A program made the position numbers and the translations under genes. 5,792 nucleotides of DNA from a virus, in IMG/VR virus record IMGVR_UViG_3300045988_001343, positions 1-5,792 of that record; one strand, written 5' to 3'. A model generated the notes under the pieces. That model was not told where the DNA came from. It searched no databases and was given only the letters and a program-made list of their open reading frames with translations. Position 1 is the stretch's first letter. Every line of letters starts with the position of its first letter. This document shows, in pieces, positions 1 through 5,792 of the stretch.

Positions 1-127
1 ATCATTGTGCAACTTTATGTTGAAAACCTGTTGAAAGTGTTGAAAGTGTTGAAAACGCGCACAGCGCTAAAAAAGAATGGATTAAGCCGCGTTCCGCATT
101 CGCTACACACGGCAAGGCGCTAAAGCG
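1..127. repeat. Terminal direct repeat, copy 1. This is assembly redundancy of a circular genome, and the unique unit is 5,665 nt.
   Basis: A base-by-base read shows 1..127 (atcattgtgcaactttatg...ggcgctaaagcg) is identical to 5666..5792. The repeat runs to both window edges. Confidence 0.95.
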
Positions 128-146
128 CCATTCAAAACAAAAACAA

Positions 147-176
147 TTGACAAGCAACGAAAAAAAATAGTAAAAT
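147..176 (+). promoter_or_regulatory. Candidate sigma70-type promoter driving the peptidase and small-ORF block
   Basis: TTGACA at 147..152, an 18-nt A-rich spacer, then TAAAAT at 171..176. It sits about 10 nt upstream of the GAGAGG Shine-Dalgarno sequence (187..192) of the first gene. Confidence 0.5.
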
Positions 177-200
177 CCGAAATAAAGAGAGGTGAACACA

Positions 201-593
201 ATGGCCATCCAATGCTATATCATGGACACAGACGCAAACGAAAAAGTCGGACAGCACTTCAAAGTAAAAGAATTCGCTTGCAAAGACGGTTCACAAGTAG
301 TTTTTATAGATAACTACCTAGTATCTATCCTAGACATTCTCAGAAACCAAGTCGGAAAGCCTGTAATCATCAACAGTGGATACCGGACACCGGCAAGGAA
401 TGAAGCAGTAGGCGGTGCAAAATACTCATACCATATGCGCGGTATGGCAGCAGACATTCGAATAAACGGAATGAACGCAAAAGAAATTGCCGAAAAACTG
501 AATAAAATTATTCCGAACGAATGCGGCATTATCGTATACAAAAATTGGGTGCACATAGACACACGCAGCAGCAAATACAGAAAGGGGGTGTAA
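201..593 (+). CDS. Peptidase M15 family (M15_3 / D-Ala-D-Ala carboxypeptidase-like zinc peptidase); putative peptidoglycan hydrolase or endolysin
   Basis: The translation contains KVKEFACKDGS...VFID, SGYRTPARNEAVGGAKYSYHMRGMAADI (SxHxxGxAxD zinc-ligand signature) and WVHIDTR (third zinc ligand His). This is the typical M15_3/DUF882-type architecture. The ORF track starts at GTG 192, but that codon overlaps the SD. ATG 201 lies 8 nt after GAGAGG and is the more likely start. Confidence 0.8.
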   Translation: MAIQCYIMDTDANEKVGQHFKVKEFACKDGSQVVFIDNYLVSILDILRNQVGKPVIINSGYRTPARNEAVGGAKYSYHMRGMAADIRINGMNAKEIAEKLNKIIPNECGIIVYKNWVHIDTRSSKYRKGV

Positions 594-595
594 AA

Positions 596-700
596 ATGGC
601 ACTTATCAGCATTAAAGACCTCAAAGCCGCAATTGCAGTTATGCGACAGATCTTGGAAAAGCTAGACGAGATCTATCATGTACTACACGACAAGCAGTAA
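596..700 (+). CDS. Hypothetical 34-aa protein (MALISIKDLKAAIAVMRQILEKLDEIYHVLHDKQ), apparently coupled to the peptidase gene
   Basis: The ATG is 2 nt after the peptidase stop, and a GGGGGTG SD-like sequence (583..589) lies 6 nt upstream. The product is a predicted amphipathic helix. It is below the ORF-track length cutoff and I recognise no family. Confidence 0.4.
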   Translation: MALISIKDLKAAIAVMRQILEKLDEIYHVLHDKQ

Positions 701-736
701 ATGAATGACGAATGACCTGTGAAGGAGAATAGCTAA

Positions 737-958
737 ATGAAATCATGGAATGTACGCGACCAGACCAAAGAAGCATTGGAAGAACTGCTCACGCGAAAAT
801 ACAAAGAAATTAATGGAAATTACAAAATGCTTAGAAAAATGTCAAACATCGAGGACGCAAAAAGACTGATAGACGAAATTTGGCAAATAAAAAGCTTTGT
901 AAACGCCATTGAATTAGAGCTAATACGAAGGGAGTATAACAATGGGACGACATCGTAA
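737..958 (+). CDS. Hypothetical 73-aa protein, helical and charged
   Basis: AAGGAG SD at 722..727 lies 9 nt upstream of ATG 737. The ORF is same-strand and compactly arranged, and its 3' end overlaps the next gene by 17 nt. I see no recognisable motif. Confidence 0.55.
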   Translation: MKSWNVRDQTKEALEELLTRKYKEINGNYKMLRKMSNIEDAKRLIDEIWQIKSFVNAIELELIRREYNNGTTS

Positions 959-1064
959 AGCAATGAGCGGCGCAAAAGACCGCCGCATGTTTAACGTAAC
1001 TGCACGAAAAACCAAAAGCATCAACCTCAGCCAAAAGCCTATGCGCGGTGGCATCCGGCTGTAA
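942..1064 (+). CDS. Small basic DNA-binding/packaging protein, resembling phiX174 J and gokushovirus ORF8
   Basis: My own translation gives 40 aa: MGRHRKAMSGAKDRRMFNVTARKTKSINLSQKPMRGGIRL. It is very rich in Arg/Lys and ends in PMRGGIRL. I recognise that ending as the characteristic C-terminus of the small basic proteins of gokushovirus-type Microviridae. An AGGGAG SD lies about 8 nt upstream. The ORF is missing from the track because of its size. Confidence 0.7.
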   Translation: MGRHRKAMSGAKDRRMFNVTARKTKSINLSQKPMRGGIRL

Positions 1065-1079
1065 AAAAGGAGAAAAAAA

Positions 1080-1319
1080 ATGGAACATCTGTATTATGGC
1101 ATTTGGGACAACGTAGCAAAATGCTACGCATGGGTAGGCGAGAGCAAGAACAATGCAACCTTTGCACGTATGTGCAGCGTAATGGCGAAGGATGAAAAAA
1201 CCTTCATTGGACAGGAGCCAGGTGATTACATCGGCTACCAGTTAGCAGCATTCAACGACGAGACCGGCGAATTTTGCAACAACAAGGAAAAAGTGTGGGA
1301 GGGCAAGCCACATGAATAA
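1080..1319 (+). CDS. Hypothetical 79-aa protein, possibly a non-structural microvirus protein
   Basis: AAGGAGA SD at 1067..1073 lies about 6 nt upstream of ATG 1080. The stop overlaps the next gene's start (ATGAATAA). The N-terminal LYYGIWDNVAKCYAWVG...NNATFARMC loosely resembles small conserved proteins I recall from metagenomic Microviridae, but I cannot name a family. Confidence 0.6.
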   Translation: MEHLYYGIWDNVAKCYAWVGESKNNATFARMCSVMAKDEKTFIGQEPGDYIGYQLAAFNDETGEFCNNKEKVWEGKPHE

Positions 1320-1704
1320 ACGATACGAAGAAGGGCGAGAGCCCTTCTTTTCTAAATCAGGAGAGAAATTCCAAAAACAATACGTTTGGACAAAAAACGA
1401 AAAAGGAGAAGAAGTACTGCAAGAAACTGCACCAATCGACATCCAACAGGAAATTGAAAGCTATGCAGATGAATGTGATATCAAAAGCATTGTCCGAAAA
1501 GCAAGTTTTGACCCGCAGTTTCTGAAAAGCCTGTCAGAAGGAGCACTAAACGGAACAGAAGTAGACATCACGGAATTTCCGCAGAACATTCACGAGTATC
1601 ACCGCATGATGGCGACCGCACAGGCAAACGCCATGAAACTTAAAGAACTGCAAAAAATGGCAGCAGCAGAACCTAAAGCAGAACCTAAAGCAGAGGAGGA
1701 ATAA
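1312..1704 (+). CDS. VP3: Putative internal scaffolding protein (VP3-like)
   Basis: A 130-aa acidic protein sits immediately upstream of VP1. The motif ESYADECDIKSIVRK matches the (S/D)xxDECDIxxI motif I associate with gokushovirus VP3 scaffolds. A GGAGG SD (1298..1302) lies 9 nt upstream. Confidence 0.6.
   Translation: MNKRYEEGREPFFSKSGEKFQKQYVWTKNEKGEEVLQETAPIDIQQEIESYADECDIKSIVRKASFDPQFLKSLSEGALNGTEVDITEFPQNIHEYHRMMATAQANAMKLKELQKMAAAEPKAEPKAEEE
1328..1349 (+). other. Stem-loop followed by a T-tract, just inside the 5' end of the VP3 ORF. It could be a weak terminator, an attenuator or an RNA-stability element.
   Basis: aagaagggc (1328..1336), loop gaga, then gcccttctt (1341..1349), followed by ttct. 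The stem is 9 bp. It lies 9 nt after the stop of the 79-aa ORF. Confidence 0.35.
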
Positions 1705-1706
1705 AA

Positions 1707-3389
1707 GTGAATCGAAACAACGAAAGACACTTTAATCAGATTCCAGAAATGAAAGCGAGTCGAACGCGATTTAACCGTGACCAGACGATTTTAACAACGT
1801 TCGATGCCGGCAAGCTGATTCCATTTTATGTTGACGAAGTATTACCAGGCGATACCTTCAACGTAAACACGACAGCAATTATTCGAATGACCACACCAAA
1901 GTATCCGGTGATGGACGATGCATTCATTGACTTCTACTACTTCTATTGTCCTAACAGAATTCTATGGGACAACTTCAAATACTTCATGGGAGAAGTAGAG
2001 GCAACGCCATGGCTGCCAAAAAAAGAATACGCAATGCCAAGAATCGTAATCGACGGAACGGATAGCAAACCAAAGCCAAACGAAAAATCCGTACTAGACT
2101 ATATGGGAGTGCCAACCAAAGTCAAAAAAACGTTTGTGATTAACGCGCTACCCGTAAGGGCGTACGTCAAAATCTGGAATGAATTTTTCAGAGATGAAAA
2201 CGTAGATAACGTAGCAGCGATAAAAACAGACGATAATCCCGTAATATACGAATTTGGAGACGAAAACTGGGTGCAAGCAGCAGAAAACAACGCGTACAAA
2301 GGCGGAAATCTGTTGCCGGTAAACAAATTCCATGATTATTTTACAAGCTGTCTGCCGTATCCTCAGCGCGGGCCGGCAGTAACAATTCCAATGACTGGTA
2401 ATGCACCTATCAGATTGGGAAGCCCCGAAGGACAATACCAAGATTACGAAGGGTCGGTAGAAATGGTGCTAGGTGCAACAAGCACATCCAACGTACCCGG
2501 GTCTCTAACATATGGAAATTTCACAGGAACACCCGGAGAAAAAAAGGCAATGCAATTTACCGGAAAAGAAAAAACAACCGGCGAATTAGGTGCAGGCGGG
2601 TGGATGTATGCAGACCTCGCATCAGTCACCGCAGCAACCGTAAACGACTTGCGAAAAGCAATAGCAGTACAGCAGTACTACGAAGCACTGGCAAGAGGCG
2701 GCAGCAGATACCGTGAACAGGTACAAGCACTATGGAACGTAGTTATCAGTGATAAAACCGTACAGGTGCCAGAATACCTTGGCGGTGGCAGATACCACGT
2801 AAATATCAATCAAATCGTACAGACAAGCGGACAGCAGGCAAACGCAGACACGCCAATTGGCGAGACGGGCGCAATGTCGGTAACGCCAATCAACGAAAGC
2901 TCTTTTACCAAATCTTTTGAAGAACATGGATTTGTAATTGGTGTATGTTGTGTACGACACAACCGCAGTTATCAGCAAGGTTTGGAGCGTTTTTGGAGCA
3001 GAAGAGACAAACTTGACTATTATGTACCGCAGTTTGCAAACCTGGGCGAGCAACCGGTAAAAAAGAAAGAAATCATGTTAACCGGCGATAAAACGGACGA
3101 AGAAACGTTCGGATATCAAGAAGCATGGGCAGAATATCGCATGAAACCTAACCGGGTATCTGGCAAAATGAGAAGCAATGCAACAGGCACGTTAGATTTC
3201 TGGCACTACGCAGATAACTACAATACAGTGCCAACACTTTCGCAAGACTGGATGGAAGAAGGAAAAGCAGAAATTGCACGCACACTCGTTGTGCAAGATG
3301 AGCCGCAATTTTTCGGTGCTATCCGCGTAGCAAACAAAACCACGAGACGGATGCCGCTATACAGCGTACCGGGCTTGTACAAACTGTAA
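1707..3389 (+). CDS. VP1: Major capsid protein VP1 (Microviridae F-protein family)
   Basis: The product is 560 aa. The N-terminus HFNQIPEMKASRTRFNRDQTILTTFDAGKLIPFYVDEVLPGDTF...RMTTPKYPVMDDAFIDFYYFYCPNRILWDNF matches the conserved gokushovirus VP1 N-terminal block. The start is GTG, 6 nt after the AGGAGGA SD (1694..1700). Confidence 0.93.
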   Translation: MNRNNERHFNQIPEMKASRTRFNRDQTILTTFDAGKLIPFYVDEVLPGDTFNVNTTAIIRMTTPKYPVMDDAFIDFYYFYCPNRILWDNFKYFMGEVEATPWLPKKEYAMPRIVIDGTDSKPKPNEKSVLDYMGVPTKVKKTFVINALPVRAYVKIWNEFFRDENVDNVAAIKTDDNPVIYEFGDENWVQAAENNAYKGGNLLPVNKFHDYFTSCLPYPQRGPAVTIPMTGNAPIRLGSPEGQYQDYEGSVEMVLGATSTSNVPGSLTYGNFTGTPGEKKAMQFTGKEKTTGELGAGGWMYADLASVTAATVNDLRKAIAVQQYYEALARGGSRYREQVQALWNVVISDKTVQVPEYLGGGRYHVNINQIVQTSGQQANADTPIGETGAMSVTPINESSFTKSFEEHGFVIGVCCVRHNRSYQQGLERFWSRRDKLDYYVPQFANLGEQPVKKKEIMLTGDKTDEETFGYQEAWAEYRMKPNRVSGKMRSNATGTLDFWHYADNYNTVPTLSQDWMEEGKAEIARTLVVQDEPQFFGAIRVANKTTRRMPLYSVPGLYKL

Positions 3390-3400
3390 GAAAGGAGGAT

Positions 3401-3426
3401 GCCTGGGAAAAACCCAGGCTATTTTT
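3401..3426 (+). terminator. Rho-independent terminator between VP1 and VP2
   Basis: gcctggg (3401..3407), loop aaaaa, cccaggc (3413..3419), then tattttt. It begins 12 nt after the VP1 stop. Confidence 0.7.
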
Positions 3427-3428
3427 AA

Positions 3429-4298
3429 ATGAGCGCATTACCAGGACTTTTAACAGCGCTAAACGTAGCGGGAAACGTGGCGAACACAATCGGAAATTTT
3501 GCAGGAGCAGCTAAAAACATAGCCGGAGCGTTTGGCGGATGGGGACAGACAGGCAATAGCCAAAGCAGCGGCGGCAGCACAAGCCAGGGCGGCGGACACT
3601 CCGAAAGCGGAAGTCAATCAGGCACCAACGTACAGCAAGTAAATGACTGGCTAAAGCAGGCATACGCATACCAAGGGCAAGAAGCAGCCATGCAAGGTAA
3701 ATACAACAGCCAGAGTATGCTTAAACAGATGGGCTATAACACGCTGCAAGCAATCATGCAAGGCGTATACAACCACATCGAAAACAGCGTAGCAATGAAC
3801 TACAACAGTGCAGAAGCACTAGCAAACCGTGAATGGCAAGAGCACATGTCAAGCACAGCGTACCAACGAGCCGTTGAGGACATGAAAAAAGCAGGACTTA
3901 ACCCTATCTTAGCATTCTCAAACGGCGGCGCAAGCACACCGGGTGGAAGCGCAGGAACAATCAGTGGAGCAAGTATGGGACTTGCAAGCAGCAGCGCACT
4001 AGGAGTGAGTCGAAGCGGAGGATTTGTGCCTAACGCATACGAAAGCAGCAGTTGGAGCAAAAGTGACTGGTACAATGCAGCACAAAGCTGGCAGCAGATG
4101 CTAAGTACAACGCAAATGACACCGTACGGACTGCAAAAAGCACTTACGGAAGTCGGAAACGACACGGACGAAGCCATCACAAAAGCAACGGATAAAATGG
4201 GAAAAGGAAAAAGCACAGAACCAAACAGAAGCATAAAACCGCAAGATAAAACAGGAAGCTACGGAGAAAAACGAAAGCCAGGTGATTATTTAAGGTGA
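3429..4298 (+). CDS. VP2: DNA pilot / minor capsid protein VP2
   Basis: The product is 289 aa with a Gly/Ala-rich hydrophobic N-terminus and Gly/Ser/Gln low-complexity stretches. The block EWQEHMSSTAYQRAVEDMKKAGLNPILAF matches the MSxTAxQRxxxDxKxAGLNP signature of gokushovirus VP2. The gene lies directly after VP1. Confidence 0.85.
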   Translation: MSALPGLLTALNVAGNVANTIGNFAGAAKNIAGAFGGWGQTGNSQSSGGSTSQGGGHSESGSQSGTNVQQVNDWLKQAYAYQGQEAAMQGKYNSQSMLKQMGYNTLQAIMQGVYNHIENSVAMNYNSAEALANREWQEHMSSTAYQRAVEDMKKAGLNPILAFSNGGASTPGGSAGTISGASMGLASSSALGVSRSGGFVPNAYESSSWSKSDWYNAAQSWQQMLSTTQMTPYGLQKALTEVGNDTDEAITKATDKMGKGKSTEPNRSIKPQDKTGSYGEKRKPGDYLR

Positions 4299-4996
4299 GT
4301 TGCTGCAAGCCATTAATAAGGCTGTACAACCCGAAAAATAAAGACATAAGCGGGCGGGTGTATTCACTCGCCCGTTTTTCTGAAATATCGGGAAAACAGC
4401 TCAAATATGAAGATTTGATGTACAGAAAAGATGTCATGCTAATACCATGTGGACAATGTATCGGATGCAGAATTCGACAGCGTGAGGACTGGACAACACG
4501 AATAGAATTAGAAGCAAGAAAATATCCAAGAGAAGAAGTTTGGTTTATTACACTCACCTACGATGACGACCATGTACCAGGCATGATAGTAAACACAGGC
4601 GAAATCATGCGAAAAGTACAATACGTCTGGAAGCCGGGAGAGAAGCGCCCTGAAAGCGTCCAAACGTTGCTATATACTGACATTCAAAAGTTCTTAAAAC
4701 GTCTCAGAAAAGCTTATAGAGGCAAATTACGCTATTTTGTAGCGGGAGAATACGGAGAACAAACAGCAAGACCACACTACCACATGATACTATACGGGTG
4801 GCAGCCAACAGACCTAGAGCACCTATACAAGATACAGCACAACGGATACTTTACAAGTAAATGGCTAGCAGACCTATGGGGCATGGGTCAAATCCAGATA
4901 GCACAAGCAGTACCGGAAACGTATAGATATGTTGCGGGATACGTTACAAAAAAAAGTGTACGAGATAGACGGCAAAAAAGCAAACGCATACTATGA
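4295..4996 (+). CDS. VP4: Replication initiation protein VP4 (HUH rolling-circle endonuclease), N-terminal frame. The frame is lost at the A8 run at 4948..4955.
   Basis: The GTG start overlaps the VP2 stop (GTGA), and an AGGTGA SD lies 9 nt upstream. Motifs are PCGQCIGCRIRQREDWTTRIELE, HYH-MILYG (HUH motif, 4775..4783) and YVAGYVTKK (two catalytic Tyr at 4928..4930 and 4940..4942; compare phiX174 A protein YVAKYVNK). After the A8 run this frame gives 14 unrelated residues and then a stop. Confidence 0.85.
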   Translation: MSCCKPLIRLYNPKNKDISGRVYSLARFSEISGKQLKYEDLMYRKDVMLIPCGQCIGCRIRQREDWTTRIELEARKYPREEVWFITLTYDDDHVPGMIVNTGEIMRKVQYVWKPGEKRPESVQTLLYTDIQKFLKRLRKAYRGKLRYFVAGEYGEQTARPHYHMILYGWQPTDLEHLYKIQHNGYFTSKWLADLWGMGQIQIAQAVPETYRYVAGYVTKKSVRDRRQKSKRIL

Positions 4997-5513
4997 ACTA
5001 GGGCAGCAAAAACCTTTTGCGTGTATGAGCCTCAAGCCAGGATTGGGAGACCAATATTATCAAGAACACAAAGCAGAAATCTGGAAACAAGGCTATATCC
5101 AATGCACAAACGGCAAACGCGCACAAATTCCACGCTATTATGAAAAAATGATGGAAGCAGAAAACCCACAAAGGTTGTGGAGAATTAAACAGAACAGACA
5201 AGCAGCAGCCATAGCAGAAAACCGACTAAAGTATGAAGACACAGACTTTGCGGAACAGTGCAAGACAAAAGAAAGGGTCATCAAGAAGCAGATGAAAAAA
5301 ATGAGGGACACTTTAACAGCGTCATGGTGTCACCTAGCCCAGTACCTATCAAGTAAGGTACTGGGCTATTGTCATTTAAAGGCTCCATATATCAGTCTAT
5401 TCAGTCTATCAAATAGCTATACTTTATCGCGCGTGCACACGCGCGCGAAACGCGCACGCGCGCACGCGCGGCTCTTCGGCGCTATTGTTCGCAAGCTCAC
5501 AAGCGCTGTATAA
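4929..5513 (+). CDS. VP4: Replication initiation protein VP4, C-terminal continuation in the +1 frame. The ATG at 4929 is probably not a real start, and the last ~65 codons are of doubtful coding status.
   Basis: From 4956 onward this frame reads VYEIDGKKANAYYELGQQKPFACMSLKPGLGDQYY...RAQIPRYYEKMM. That is the expected continuation of a microvirus Rep after the catalytic Tyr motif (the F-x-MS-x-KPG-x-G block). The tail from about 5320 runs through a hairpin, a tandem repeat and the CG tracts. Confidence 0.75.
   Translation: MLRDTLQKKVYEIDGKKANAYYELGQQKPFACMSLKPGLGDQYYQEHKAEIWKQGYIQCTNGKRAQIPRYYEKMMEAENPQRLWRIKQNRQAAAIAENRLKYEDTDFAEQCKTKERVIKKQMKKMRDTLTASWCHLAQYLSSKVLGYCHLKAPYISLFSLSNSYTLSRVHTRAKRARAHARLFGAIVRKLTSAV
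5335..5368. other. Perfect 13-bp stem with an 8-nt loop. Candidate ssDNA structural element, either a complementary-strand priming site or a 3' end-forming hairpin.
   Basis: tagcccagtacct (5335..5347), loop atcaagta (5348..5355), then aggtactgggcta (5356..5368), which is the exact reverse complement. No clean T-tract follows (ttgtcattt), so it is not a textbook intrinsic terminator. Confidence 0.6.
5392..5409. repeat. 9-bp tandem direct repeat, 2 copies (tcagtctat)
   Basis: tcagtctat at 5392..5400 and again at 5401..5409. Confidence 0.8.
5438..5480. repeat. GC-rich island with two 20-nt perfectly alternating pyrimidine-purine tracts and a CACGCGC/GCGCGTG heptamer cluster
   Basis: 5438..5457 (cgcgcgtgcacacgcgcgcg) and 5461..5480 (cgcgcacgcgcgcacgcgcg) both alternate Y-R at every position and are separated by aaa. 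GCGCGTG at 5439..5445 is the inverted form of CACGCGC at 5448..5454, 5465..5471 and 5473..5479. The island contrasts sharply with the A-rich genome. Confidence 0.85.
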
Positions 5514-5554
5514 TATATAACTTGTTGCAGGAGTAGTAGTAGAGGTGGTGGAAA

Positions 5555-5719
5555 AGTTGAAAAGTACTAAAATTTAACGCCAAAGCGTAAATAAAAAAGA
5601 AAATAGCTGTTGAAAATTTTGTTAAAAACTTGTTGAAATGTTGAAAGTTCGTCAAAATGACAAAGATCATTGTGCAACTTTATGTTGAAAACCTGTTGAA
5701 AGTGTTGAAAGTGTTGAAA
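5555..5719 (+). repeat. Iteron-like array of eight same-orientation (T/A)GTTGAAA octamers in the major intergenic region
   Basis: Copies lie at 5555..5562 (agttgaaa), 5608..5615, 5631..5638, 5639..5646, 5683..5690, 5694..5701, 5703..5710 and 5712..5719. The last four equal 18..25, 29..36, 38..45 and 47..54 in the first repeat copy. The last three form a 9-bp tandem, tgttgaaag. Degenerate copies are gttaaaa at 5621 and gtcaaaa at 5651. Confidence 0.85.
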
Positions 5720-5792
5720 ACGCGCACAGCGCTAAAAAAGAATGGATTAAGCCGCGTTCCGCATTCGCTACACACGGCAAGGCGCTAAAGCG
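5666..5792. repeat. Terminal direct repeat, copy 2 (identical to 1..127)
   Basis: Exact 127-nt identity with the start of the window. Confidence 0.95.

Follow-up and report, generated by a model that had tools for sequence, protein, structure and literature searches.

In this study, we analysed the first gene after the intergenic region of a gokushovirus genome, IMG/VR record IMGVR_UViG_3300045988_001343 (positions 1 to 5,792; this whole stretch of 5,792 nucleotides (nt) is called the window below). The gene encodes a peptidase of the M15_3 family. With a putative promoter it forms a cassette of about 550 nt that is swapped between gokushovirus lineages, and the small gene behind it, o34, belongs to the clade at large and is not tied to the peptidase. 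On balance, and with limited confidence, we regard it as probable that the peptidase is an accessory cytoplasmic endolysin, acquired from (pro)phages of Clostridia, which would act after a membrane lesion that arises independently of it. Within this picture, we infer the muralytic activity, the role in lysis, the order of events and the Clostridia-type host. M15 peptidases of gut gokushoviruses have already been published and annotated, and the window is another member of this group. To this, the present work adds an analysis of the small genes on its flank, the boundaries of the cassette and a sister lineage that lacks the peptidase.

The M15_3 peptidase

The gene and its key residues are located as follows.

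201-593, + strand: Peptidase_M15_3 / M15A-type single-domain zinc peptidase, 130 amino acids (aa), 14.7 kDa, isoelectric point 9.3 (Pfam, PHROG and NCBIfam scans)
nt 384-386, + strand: R62 of SGYR, invariant
nt 432-434, + strand: H78 of SYHMRGMAAD, proposed zinc ligand
nt 453-455, + strand: D85 of SYHMRGMAAD, proposed zinc ligand
nt 552-554, + strand: H118 of WVHID, proposed zinc ligand
nt 558-560, + strand: D120 of WVHID, invariant

A preliminary description of the window, made from its letters, had named an M15_3-type metallopeptidase, and profile searches confirmed this over the whole domain. PF08291 (Peptidase_M15_3, clan Peptidase_MD) matches with E=5.9e-24 (84.7 bits against a gathering cut-off of 23.2; profile positions 2-108 of 108), PF05951 matches at 1.8e-8 and PHROG 894 'endolysin' at 7e-44. 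Judged from the sequence, membership of the M15_3 family is established. ATG 201 is preceded by the Shine-Dalgarno-like GAGAGGTG; GTG 192 is a mechanical start of the open reading frame (ORF). The motifs that had been quoted (SGYR, SYHMRGMAAD and VHID) are all present, and the arrangement H78-x6-D85 ... H118 together with the Arg of SG[YF]R is that of M15 enzymes. In an alignment of microvirus alleles down to 42% identity and two Faecalibacterium-phage endolysins, R62, H78, D85, H118 and D120 are invariant, and the SxHxxGxAxD block was found in 170 of 170 extracted microvirus copies. The gene is under purifying selection, with a ratio of nonsynonymous to synonymous substitution rates (dN/dS) of 0.19.

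Among solved structures, the zinc D-Ala-D-Ala peptidase 1LBU is nearest in sequence (GGFR...SRHMYGHAAD against SGYR...SYHMRGMAAD); a search from the sequence alone gave E=8.8e-5, and one from a profile 1.3e-8. H78, D85 and R62 align with its residues H154, D161 and R138, of which we take the first two to be zinc ligands and the third to be the conserved Arg of MEROPS family M15. An AlphaFold model built on a 52-sequence alignment reached a mean predicted local distance difference test score (pLDDT) of 73.8. Its best match in the Protein Data Bank (PDB) was again 1LBU, with a probability of 1.00, a template-modelling score of 0.49 and a root-mean-square deviation of 3.4 Å over 87 alignment columns, values that belong to a moderate model. 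Sonic hedgehog-N and VanXYc followed, and VanY, the LysECD7 endolysin, ChiX, LdcB, MepA and the T5 endolysin stood lower in the list, amid unrelated folds. The model also matched many phage 'Peptidase M15A' models, some of which are M15A domains inside tailed-phage proteins of ~400-1,190 aa. An earlier model from a 25-sequence alignment (pLDDT 69) had given weak PDB matches to VanY (E about 0.01, template-modelling score 0.35). The fold-level match to 1LBU is supportive but not decisive for a LAS / hedgehog-type fold. In both homologue searches, the best 120 proteins were all 71-92% identical to the query; a profile search with divergent alleles placed the same microvirus clade on top of a family of at least 7,837 clusters.

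Export signals, holins and donor loci

Transmembrane (TM) segments were searched for with Kyte-Doolittle (KD) hydropathy windows, and a segment was called TM-grade at a mean of at least 1.6 over 19 residues. In the window, no + strand ORF of at least 20 aa, in all frames including overprinted ones, contains such a segment; the maximum is 1.27. By hydropathy, the window thus has no linked small protein with at least one TM helix that could serve as a holin, and no small TM ORF resembling an overprinted phiX174 E gene, a candidate that was dismissed because none is conserved in relatives either. The preliminary description had likewise seen no TM helix on the + strand, with the N-terminus of VP2 as the exception. 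The general statement stands, while the exception does not amount to a clear helix, as the segment scores KD 1.11.

3429-3545, + strand: Gly/Ala-rich N-terminus of VP2, candidate membrane-active element and, within the clade, the one segment of moderate hydrophobicity that recurs

In some relatives (L046, L123, L133 and L173) this N-terminus reaches KD 1.62-1.73. Among 158 distinct related microvirus genomes, no conserved TM-grade ORF of at least 25 aa was found. Thirteen of the 158 have any TM-grade ORF, and these are unconserved overprinted frames, ORFs of over-length (possibly chimeric) contigs, or the VP2 N-terminus.

The peptidase itself shows neither a signal peptide nor a signal-anchor-release (SAR) segment. 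Its N-terminus, MAIQCYIMDTDANEKVGQHF, is polar and acidic, and its highest 19-residue KD value (1.07) lies in the core, in agreement with the earlier remark that the N-terminus is not hydrophobic. This N-terminus aligns with that of cytoplasmic tailed-phage homologues and is therefore part of the fold and not a signal, by which a SAR or signal-peptide endolysin was ruled out. As far as the sequence tells, the peptidase would represent the cytoplasmic muralytic half of a holin-endolysin cassette.

The best matches outside the microviruses are annotated endolysins of the Faecalibacterium phages FP_Toutatis (48% identity) and FP_oengus (39%), and the best 80 cellular loci are nearly all from Clostridia (Faecalibacterium, Oscillospiraceae, Lachnospiraceae and Eubacteriales; 38-52% identity). 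A same-strand TM-grade ORF lies within 1 kb of the enzyme at 48 of 62 bacterial loci, compared with 42 of 101 control windows placed 3.5 kb away (Fisher p=9e-6). In FP_Toutatis and FP_oengus, proteins that contain a TM-grade segment are encoded behind the enzyme, and FP_oengus has an annotated holin two genes downstream. Since a TM ORF usually accompanies the enzyme at the donor loci and none is conserved in the microviruses, we propose that the latter acquired the enzyme without its holin.

Potentially, the donor also tells something about the host. Eight of nine window genes have good Shine-Dalgarno sequences upstream. Initiation rich in Shine-Dalgarno sites suits a host of the Firmicutes type more than one from the Bacteroidota, and microvirus prophages in Firmicutes isolates have already been reported. 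Together with the affinity of the endolysin, this hints at a Gram-positive gut host of the Clostridia type. The sole microvirus-like contig that was found in a bacterial-genome bin is a complete-looking gokushovirus (L193; CALBJK010000280.1, a 5,840-nt contig) in a metagenome-assembled genome of Prevotella; its VP1 and its peptidase are each 49% identical to those of the window. It was set aside as host evidence, because the binning of small contigs is unreliable and because it is too distant.

Cassette exchange, o34 and genome organization

The following features surround the peptidase gene.

54-598, + strand: promoter-plus-peptidase cassette, defined by blastn against L006, L013 and L045 (82-86% DNA identity, rest of the genome essentially unalignable)
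147-176, + strand: strong sigma-70-like promoter, TTGACA, 18-nt spacer, TAAAAT (consensus scan, 11/12 matches; pattern match only)
596-700, + strand: o34, a 34-aa amphipathic helical peptide with a heptad pattern (tblastn, dN/dS, family members)
737-958, + strand: o73, a 73-aa soluble helical protein (dN/dS 0.16 against 1.1-1.3 in shifted frames)
942-1064, + strand: 40-aa arginine-rich ORF ending ...MRGGIRL, conserved at 78-95% in lineage 1

Relatives were assembled from 80 genomes fetched through the peptidase and 100 further locus records fetched through the conserved o34 motif. Lineage 1, to which the window belongs, has the order peptidase, o34, o73, VP8, VP5. In lineage 2, whose VP1 is about 40-46% identical, the order is peptidase, optional o73, VP8, o34, VP5. 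Lineage 3 consists of eight genomes of 4.9-5.5 kb (L087, L093, L098, L103, L105, L123, L169 and L173) with the order o73-like ORF, o34, VP8, VP5. A sensitive profile search detected no M15 domain in lineage 3, where the best E was 3.3, while positive controls gave 1e-50 to 1e-53. Behind the intergenic region, the slot is taken in this lineage by unrelated soluble ORFs of 65-78 aa that have no family match.

At the DNA level, the window shares with lineage 2 only the stretch of about 54-598 and the o73 gene; bases 2-45 are ~93-95% identical even to lineage-2 genomes. Conversely, the lineage-1 genomes L091 and L125, which carry a divergent allele, align with the window by blastn everywhere except in the peptidase stretch. 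The peptidase and its putative promoter, a sigma-70-like pattern directly upstream of the gene and inside the shared stretch, are thus a cassette of about 550 nt that moves between gokushovirus lineages. The same slot, on similar backbones, is filled by at least three or four divergent M15_3 alleles that share 43-56% identity with the allele of the window (L091, L095, L106, L110, L121, L122, L125, L126, L129 and L133, and further L137, L141, L142, L144, L147, L149, L164, L171 and L176), which speaks for repeated replacement of the cassette.

The preliminary description had noticed a 34-aa amphipathic ORF behind the peptidase, and this ORF, o34, is a real conserved gene. To judge from its substitutions, purifying selection on it is very strong: dN/dS is 0.07, whereas the shifted frames give 1.26 and 3.75, and the variation among 76 distinct sequences lies mostly at third codon positions. 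It starts 3 nt past the peptidase stop, with a conserved Shine-Dalgarno sequence, GAAAGGGGGT, inside the 3' end of the peptidase gene. By tblastn it was found in 81 of 82 genomes, and the remaining genome has a divergent copy. Members of the family are 32-47 aa long and have a core MALISIKDVKQAI..MMQILEKLDEIYHALHD and a variable acidic tail. In one register, 9 of 9 a/d heptad positions are hydrophobic, the net charge is 0 to -2 and KD is at most 1.27. In appearance, o34 is a short coiled coil to which the acidic tail is added. A protein search that began from a 40-aa family member showed that 1,285 protein clusters belong to the family. Of these, 120 were listed; none of them bears a name, and nearly all come from contigs of microvirus size. 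In GenBank, o34 is unannotated in 27 of the 31 records that contain it.

The ORF had also been described as the tightly linked partner of the peptidase. The survey of co-occurrence contradicts this, as o34 occurs in the peptidase-less lineage and is separated from the peptidase in lineage 2. As a sister lineage without an M15 domain conserves it too, o34 cannot count as a partner dedicated to the peptidase; it is a small gene of the clade, independent of that enzyme. The neighbouring o73 is optional in lineage 2 and has a distant 68-aa counterpart in lineage 3. Pfam, PHROG and NCBIfam scans returned nothing usable for o34, o73 and the ORFs in the lineage-3 slot. The 40-aa ORF, whose counterparts in other lineages end ...SRGGIRL or ...MRGGTRL, is by position and composition probably the VP8/J-like DNA-binding protein and would correspond to the ORF8 of gokushoviruses.

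The remaining genes are those expected of a gokushovirus.

1080-1319, + strand: VP5 (PF20577)
1312-1704, + strand: VP3 scaffold, Chlamydia-phage type (PF09675)
1707-3389, + strand: VP1 capsid, Phage_F (PF02305, E=4.8e-141)
3429-4298, + strand: VP2 pilot (PHROG 8742 'pilot protein for DNA ejection', E=3e-125)
4295-4996 and 4929-5513, + strand: VP4 replication initiator, split in two overlapping frames

The window is a complete circular genome, since bases 1-127 repeat exactly at 5666-5792, and this 127-nt terminal overlap leaves a unit of 5,665 nt. VP1, VP2, VP3, VP4 and VP5 lie on a single strand of a ~5.7-kb circle, as in the Gokushovirinae (~4.5-6 kb), all recognisable genes are on the + strand, and Pfam and PHROG scans gave gokushovirus matches to PF02305 (4.8e-141), PF09675, PF20577, PF23343 and PHROG 8742. 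The closest GenBank genome is Human gut gokushovirus KX513868 (83% DNA identity over 91% of the window), and the closest relatives are classed as Gokushovirinae.

The split of VP4 is caused by a single extra G at 4956, right after a run of eight A (window 4948-4956). The window stands alone with this G among 108 distinct sequences, and VP4 is intact in 72 of the 78 in which a T comes after the same A-run. The frameshift is probably a sequencing or assembly error or marks a defective variant, although slippage on the A-run may be an alternative. The second frame (4929-5513) stays open for ~55 codons past the end of the replication-initiator homology (residue ~140 of 194) and runs through the hairpins of the intergenic region, so that the true VP4 stop in the window is uncertain. 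The intergenic region contains three candidate terminator, origin or regulatory features (5335-5368, 5428-5470, 23-56 = 5688-5721 and 5602-5648), namely a 13-bp terminator-like hairpin just past the end of the VP4 homology, a GC-rich alternating CG/CA inverted repeat with 20-nt arms that are 85% complementary, and several copies of a 9-nt repeat of the GTTGAAAGT type.

Mode of action and comparison with known systems

In the picture that we favour, gut gokushoviruses gained the enzyme from tailed (pro)phages of Clostridia, and the accompanying holin would not have been carried over. The peptidase gene, with its own putative promoter, occupies the variable slot right after the intergenic region and would encode a small soluble cytoplasmic M15A/M15_3 endolysin that cuts peptidoglycan peptides. 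This enzyme would build up in the cytoplasm, and degradation of the wall would begin only after a breach of the cytoplasmic membrane. The breach would be a step that the clade already had and that does not depend on the peptidase; the peptidase would be an accessory that completes or speeds the breakdown of the wall. A role in wall degradation and release is the best reading because of the conserved chemistry and the endolysin ancestry, and another means of breaching the envelope is suggested because the sister lineage does without the peptidase. Candidate effectors of the breach would be the Gly/Ala-rich N-terminus of VP2, o34 or an inhibitor of wall synthesis, of which the first two are hypothetical and neither is convincing. 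Several points weigh against this picture. The membrane-breaching step is hypothetical, TM segments were detected by KD windows alone, and no candidate for the breach has a convincing TM helix in the window. The structural model is moderate only (mean pLDDT and template-modelling score to 1LBU as given above). The affinity of the gene to Clostridia shows the donor but not necessarily the host. A promoter-proximal place would mean early expression, unlike the timing expected of a regulated lysis gene. Finally, no functional study of a microvirus M15 enzyme was found in the literature searched.

In an alternative reading, the peptidase would pass the membrane with the help of a dedicated partner, o34 by itself or in combination with o73. 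Such a partner would be a holin of a non-classical kind or a chaperone for export like Gp1 of mycobacteriophage Ms6. The ribosome-binding site inside the peptidase gene, the start just behind its stop, the low dN/dS, the fully hydrophobic a/d positions and the presence of o34 in every examined peptidase-bearing genome would all fit, and Dulem virus 198 encodes a true 31-aa TM peptide at the same position after its peptidase. However, o34 is equally conserved in the eight genomes without an M15 domain, and VP8 parts it from the peptidase in lineage 2, with or without o73. In some lineage-1 genomes it keeps about 70-80% identity where the peptidase allele is 44-53% identical, and it lies outside the exchanged cassette. 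It also lacks TM-grade hydrophobicity, its net charge does not exceed 0, and o73 is dispensable in many genomes. We therefore consider a dedicated partnership unlikely. Independently of this, the universally conserved coiled-coil peptide o34 might be the primary lysis effector of the clade, with the peptidase only assisting. Equally doubtful as a partnership, or slightly more so, is a virion-associated peptidase that opens the wall locally at DNA entry and has no part in release. M15A domains do form part of very large proteins of tailed phages (about 400-1,190 aa), possibly tail lysins, a phage of 5.7 kb without a tail would be hindered by a thick Gram-positive wall, and the unrelated hydrolase of the Rhodobacter microvirus Ebor was detected in virions, in traces. 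Against entry stand a free-standing 14.7-kDa enzyme without a capsid- or pilot-binding extension, sister lineages that infect without a peptidase, and an accessory cassette that is swapped so that different alleles sit on near-identical structural backbones; moreover, the Ebor hydrolase is a trace component and not a structural one.

A peptidase that stays in the cytoplasm might also hydrolyse wall precursors (UDP-MurNAc-peptides, D-Ala-D-Ala or inner-leaflet lipid II) and so starve wall synthesis. VanXYc and VanY, both in the fold list, are M15 D,D-peptidases that act on cytoplasmic precursors. Neither an export signal nor a holin was seen in at least 158 genomes, and constitutive promoter-proximal expression would suit a slow depletion. 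Small phages typically lyse by blocking wall synthesis, according to abstracts on single-gene lysis proteins and to Roux et al. (2012; PMC3394797). The peptidase would then do by catalysis what the protein antibiotics E of phiX174, A2 of Qbeta and LysM of phage M do. If true, no small phage before this one would have had an enzyme as its 'protein antibiotic', and the missing holin and export signal of the clade would be explained. On the other side, the nearest homologues, which have 39-48% identity, equal length and identical invariant residues, are endolysins beside holins and so mature-wall enzymes, the sequence gives no sign of a change of substrate, and no precedent was found in the literature searched. 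Hydrolysis of precursors is thus improbable, to about the same degree as a role in entry. A chimeric assembly, or a host housekeeping (MepK/YcbK-like) gene without a role in the phage cycle, hardly deserves consideration. Joint Genome Institute (JGI) pipelines label relatives 'YcbK (DUF882 family)', and the PF05951 match is weak. However, the NCBIfam MepK model NF053624 scores 50.4 bits against a cut-off of 185 and covers model positions 73-171 of 176, which is the C-terminal catalytic part only; the MepK/YcbK origin suggested earlier also conflicts with phage endolysins as nearest homologues. The gene has the same location in GenBank genomes from China and in well over 100 circular assemblies that come independently from many samples, and its position relative to the other genes is kept in 72 of the 72 first-aligned lineage-1 relatives (complete or partial; several metagenomes and GenBank). 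Purifying selection and an even GC content across the junctions of the gene complete this evidence, and a chimeric insert is thereby excluded.

An accessory cytoplasmic endolysin that depends on a separate membrane lesion therefore remains our preferred reading, and the question raised in the preliminary description, how the enzyme reaches the wall, is a legitimate one that is now better framed. In the mammalian gut, gokushoviruses rank among the most abundant phages; no mechanism of lysis has been established for them, and nearly all of their hosts are unassigned. The clade is a clean natural experiment, with close genomes that carry the enzyme, divergent alleles of it or no enzyme, and none with a recognisable holin. 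It makes two questions directly testable, namely what breaches the membrane in a gokushovirus infection and whether o34 takes part.

In comparison with phiX174 E and other 'amurins', the window faces the same problem of lysis from a ~5-kb genome without room for a multi-gene cassette. E is a small, overprinted TM protein that inhibits MraY non-enzymatically, whereas the window has a wall-hydrolase gene and no conserved ORF of the E kind. That this implies a lysis strategy different from that of phiX174, as proposed earlier, is a reasonable reading, although not a new one, as it is already in the literature. The sole experimentally tested microvirus wall hydrolase is Gp7 of Ebor, which is zymogram-positive and a trace, non-structural component of the virion (mBio 2025; PMC11980548). 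Like the window enzyme it is a small free-standing peptidoglycan hydrolase, but it is amidase-type (PHROG 822) and has no detectable similarity to the M15 enzyme, and it was rejected as a functional precedent for this reason. Ebor also encodes a small TM protein of 45 aa, Gp1 (L287:67-204), elsewhere in the genome than the hydrolase; the window clade is without such a protein.

Strongly hydrophobic mini-ORFs adjoin the peptidase in two of eight other peptidase-bearing microviruses sampled, the uncultured Dulem virus 198 and Dipodfec virus UOA04_Rod_462, whose peptidases match PF08291 with E=3.5e-19 and 1.7e-17. The gene order of Dulem virus 198 is like that of the window (peptidase, small ORF, VP8-like ORF, then an 87-aa 'nonstructural protein' in the place of VP5), but right after the peptidase it has the 31-aa TM peptide (L269:1547-1642) where the window has the non-TM o34. 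Dipodfec virus UOA04_Rod_462 has a 97-aa TM protein upstream (L266:795-1088) and a 39-aa TM peptide downstream (1569-1688). The flanking mini-ORFs of both viruses reach KD 2.2-2.5. A search of IMG/VR for their conservation gave too few microvirus relatives (15 loci, mostly of tailed phages, for Dulem virus 198 and none for Dipodfec virus UOA04_Rod_462). By their hydropathy, the mini-ORFs of Dulem, Dipodfec and Ebor are possible holin-like partners, for which no discussion was found. Some microviruses may thus have rebuilt a holin-endolysin pair, which the window clade has not.

Among characterized enzymes, 1LBU of Streptomyces albus (MEROPS M15A) is a secreted 213-aa protein with an additional N-terminal wall-binding domain. 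The endolysins of FP_Toutatis and FP_oengus are closer, being single-domain proteins of 138-139 aa with 39-48% identity, the same invariant residues and presumably the same wall-peptide chemistry. They differ from the window by the TM-grade proteins after the enzyme, one of them an annotated holin, of which the window has none. In general, peptidases are recurrent lysis-associated accessory genes of microviruses, and a 700-nt peptidase region is traded between distant members (Kirchberger et al., 2022); cultured roseophage microviruses carry M15 peptidases too. The earlier remark that M15-like peptidases had been noted in metagenomic Microviridae without functional work was correct. M15_3 peptidases were described in five Gokushovirinae and six Alpavirinae from the human gut, their horizontal acquisition was shown, and the gokushovirus copies cluster with Faecalibacterium genes that adjoin holins (Roux et al., 2012; PMC3394797). 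In the same study, a role as endolysin was proposed and Gram-positive hosts were speculated. The GenBank records KX513868, KX513876 and KX513877 annotate the gene as 'peptidase M15', and the KX513876 peptidase is 86% identical in protein to that of the window. All these gut viruses share with the window the protein family, the virus subfamily, the habitat and the position in the genome, and nothing essential differs.

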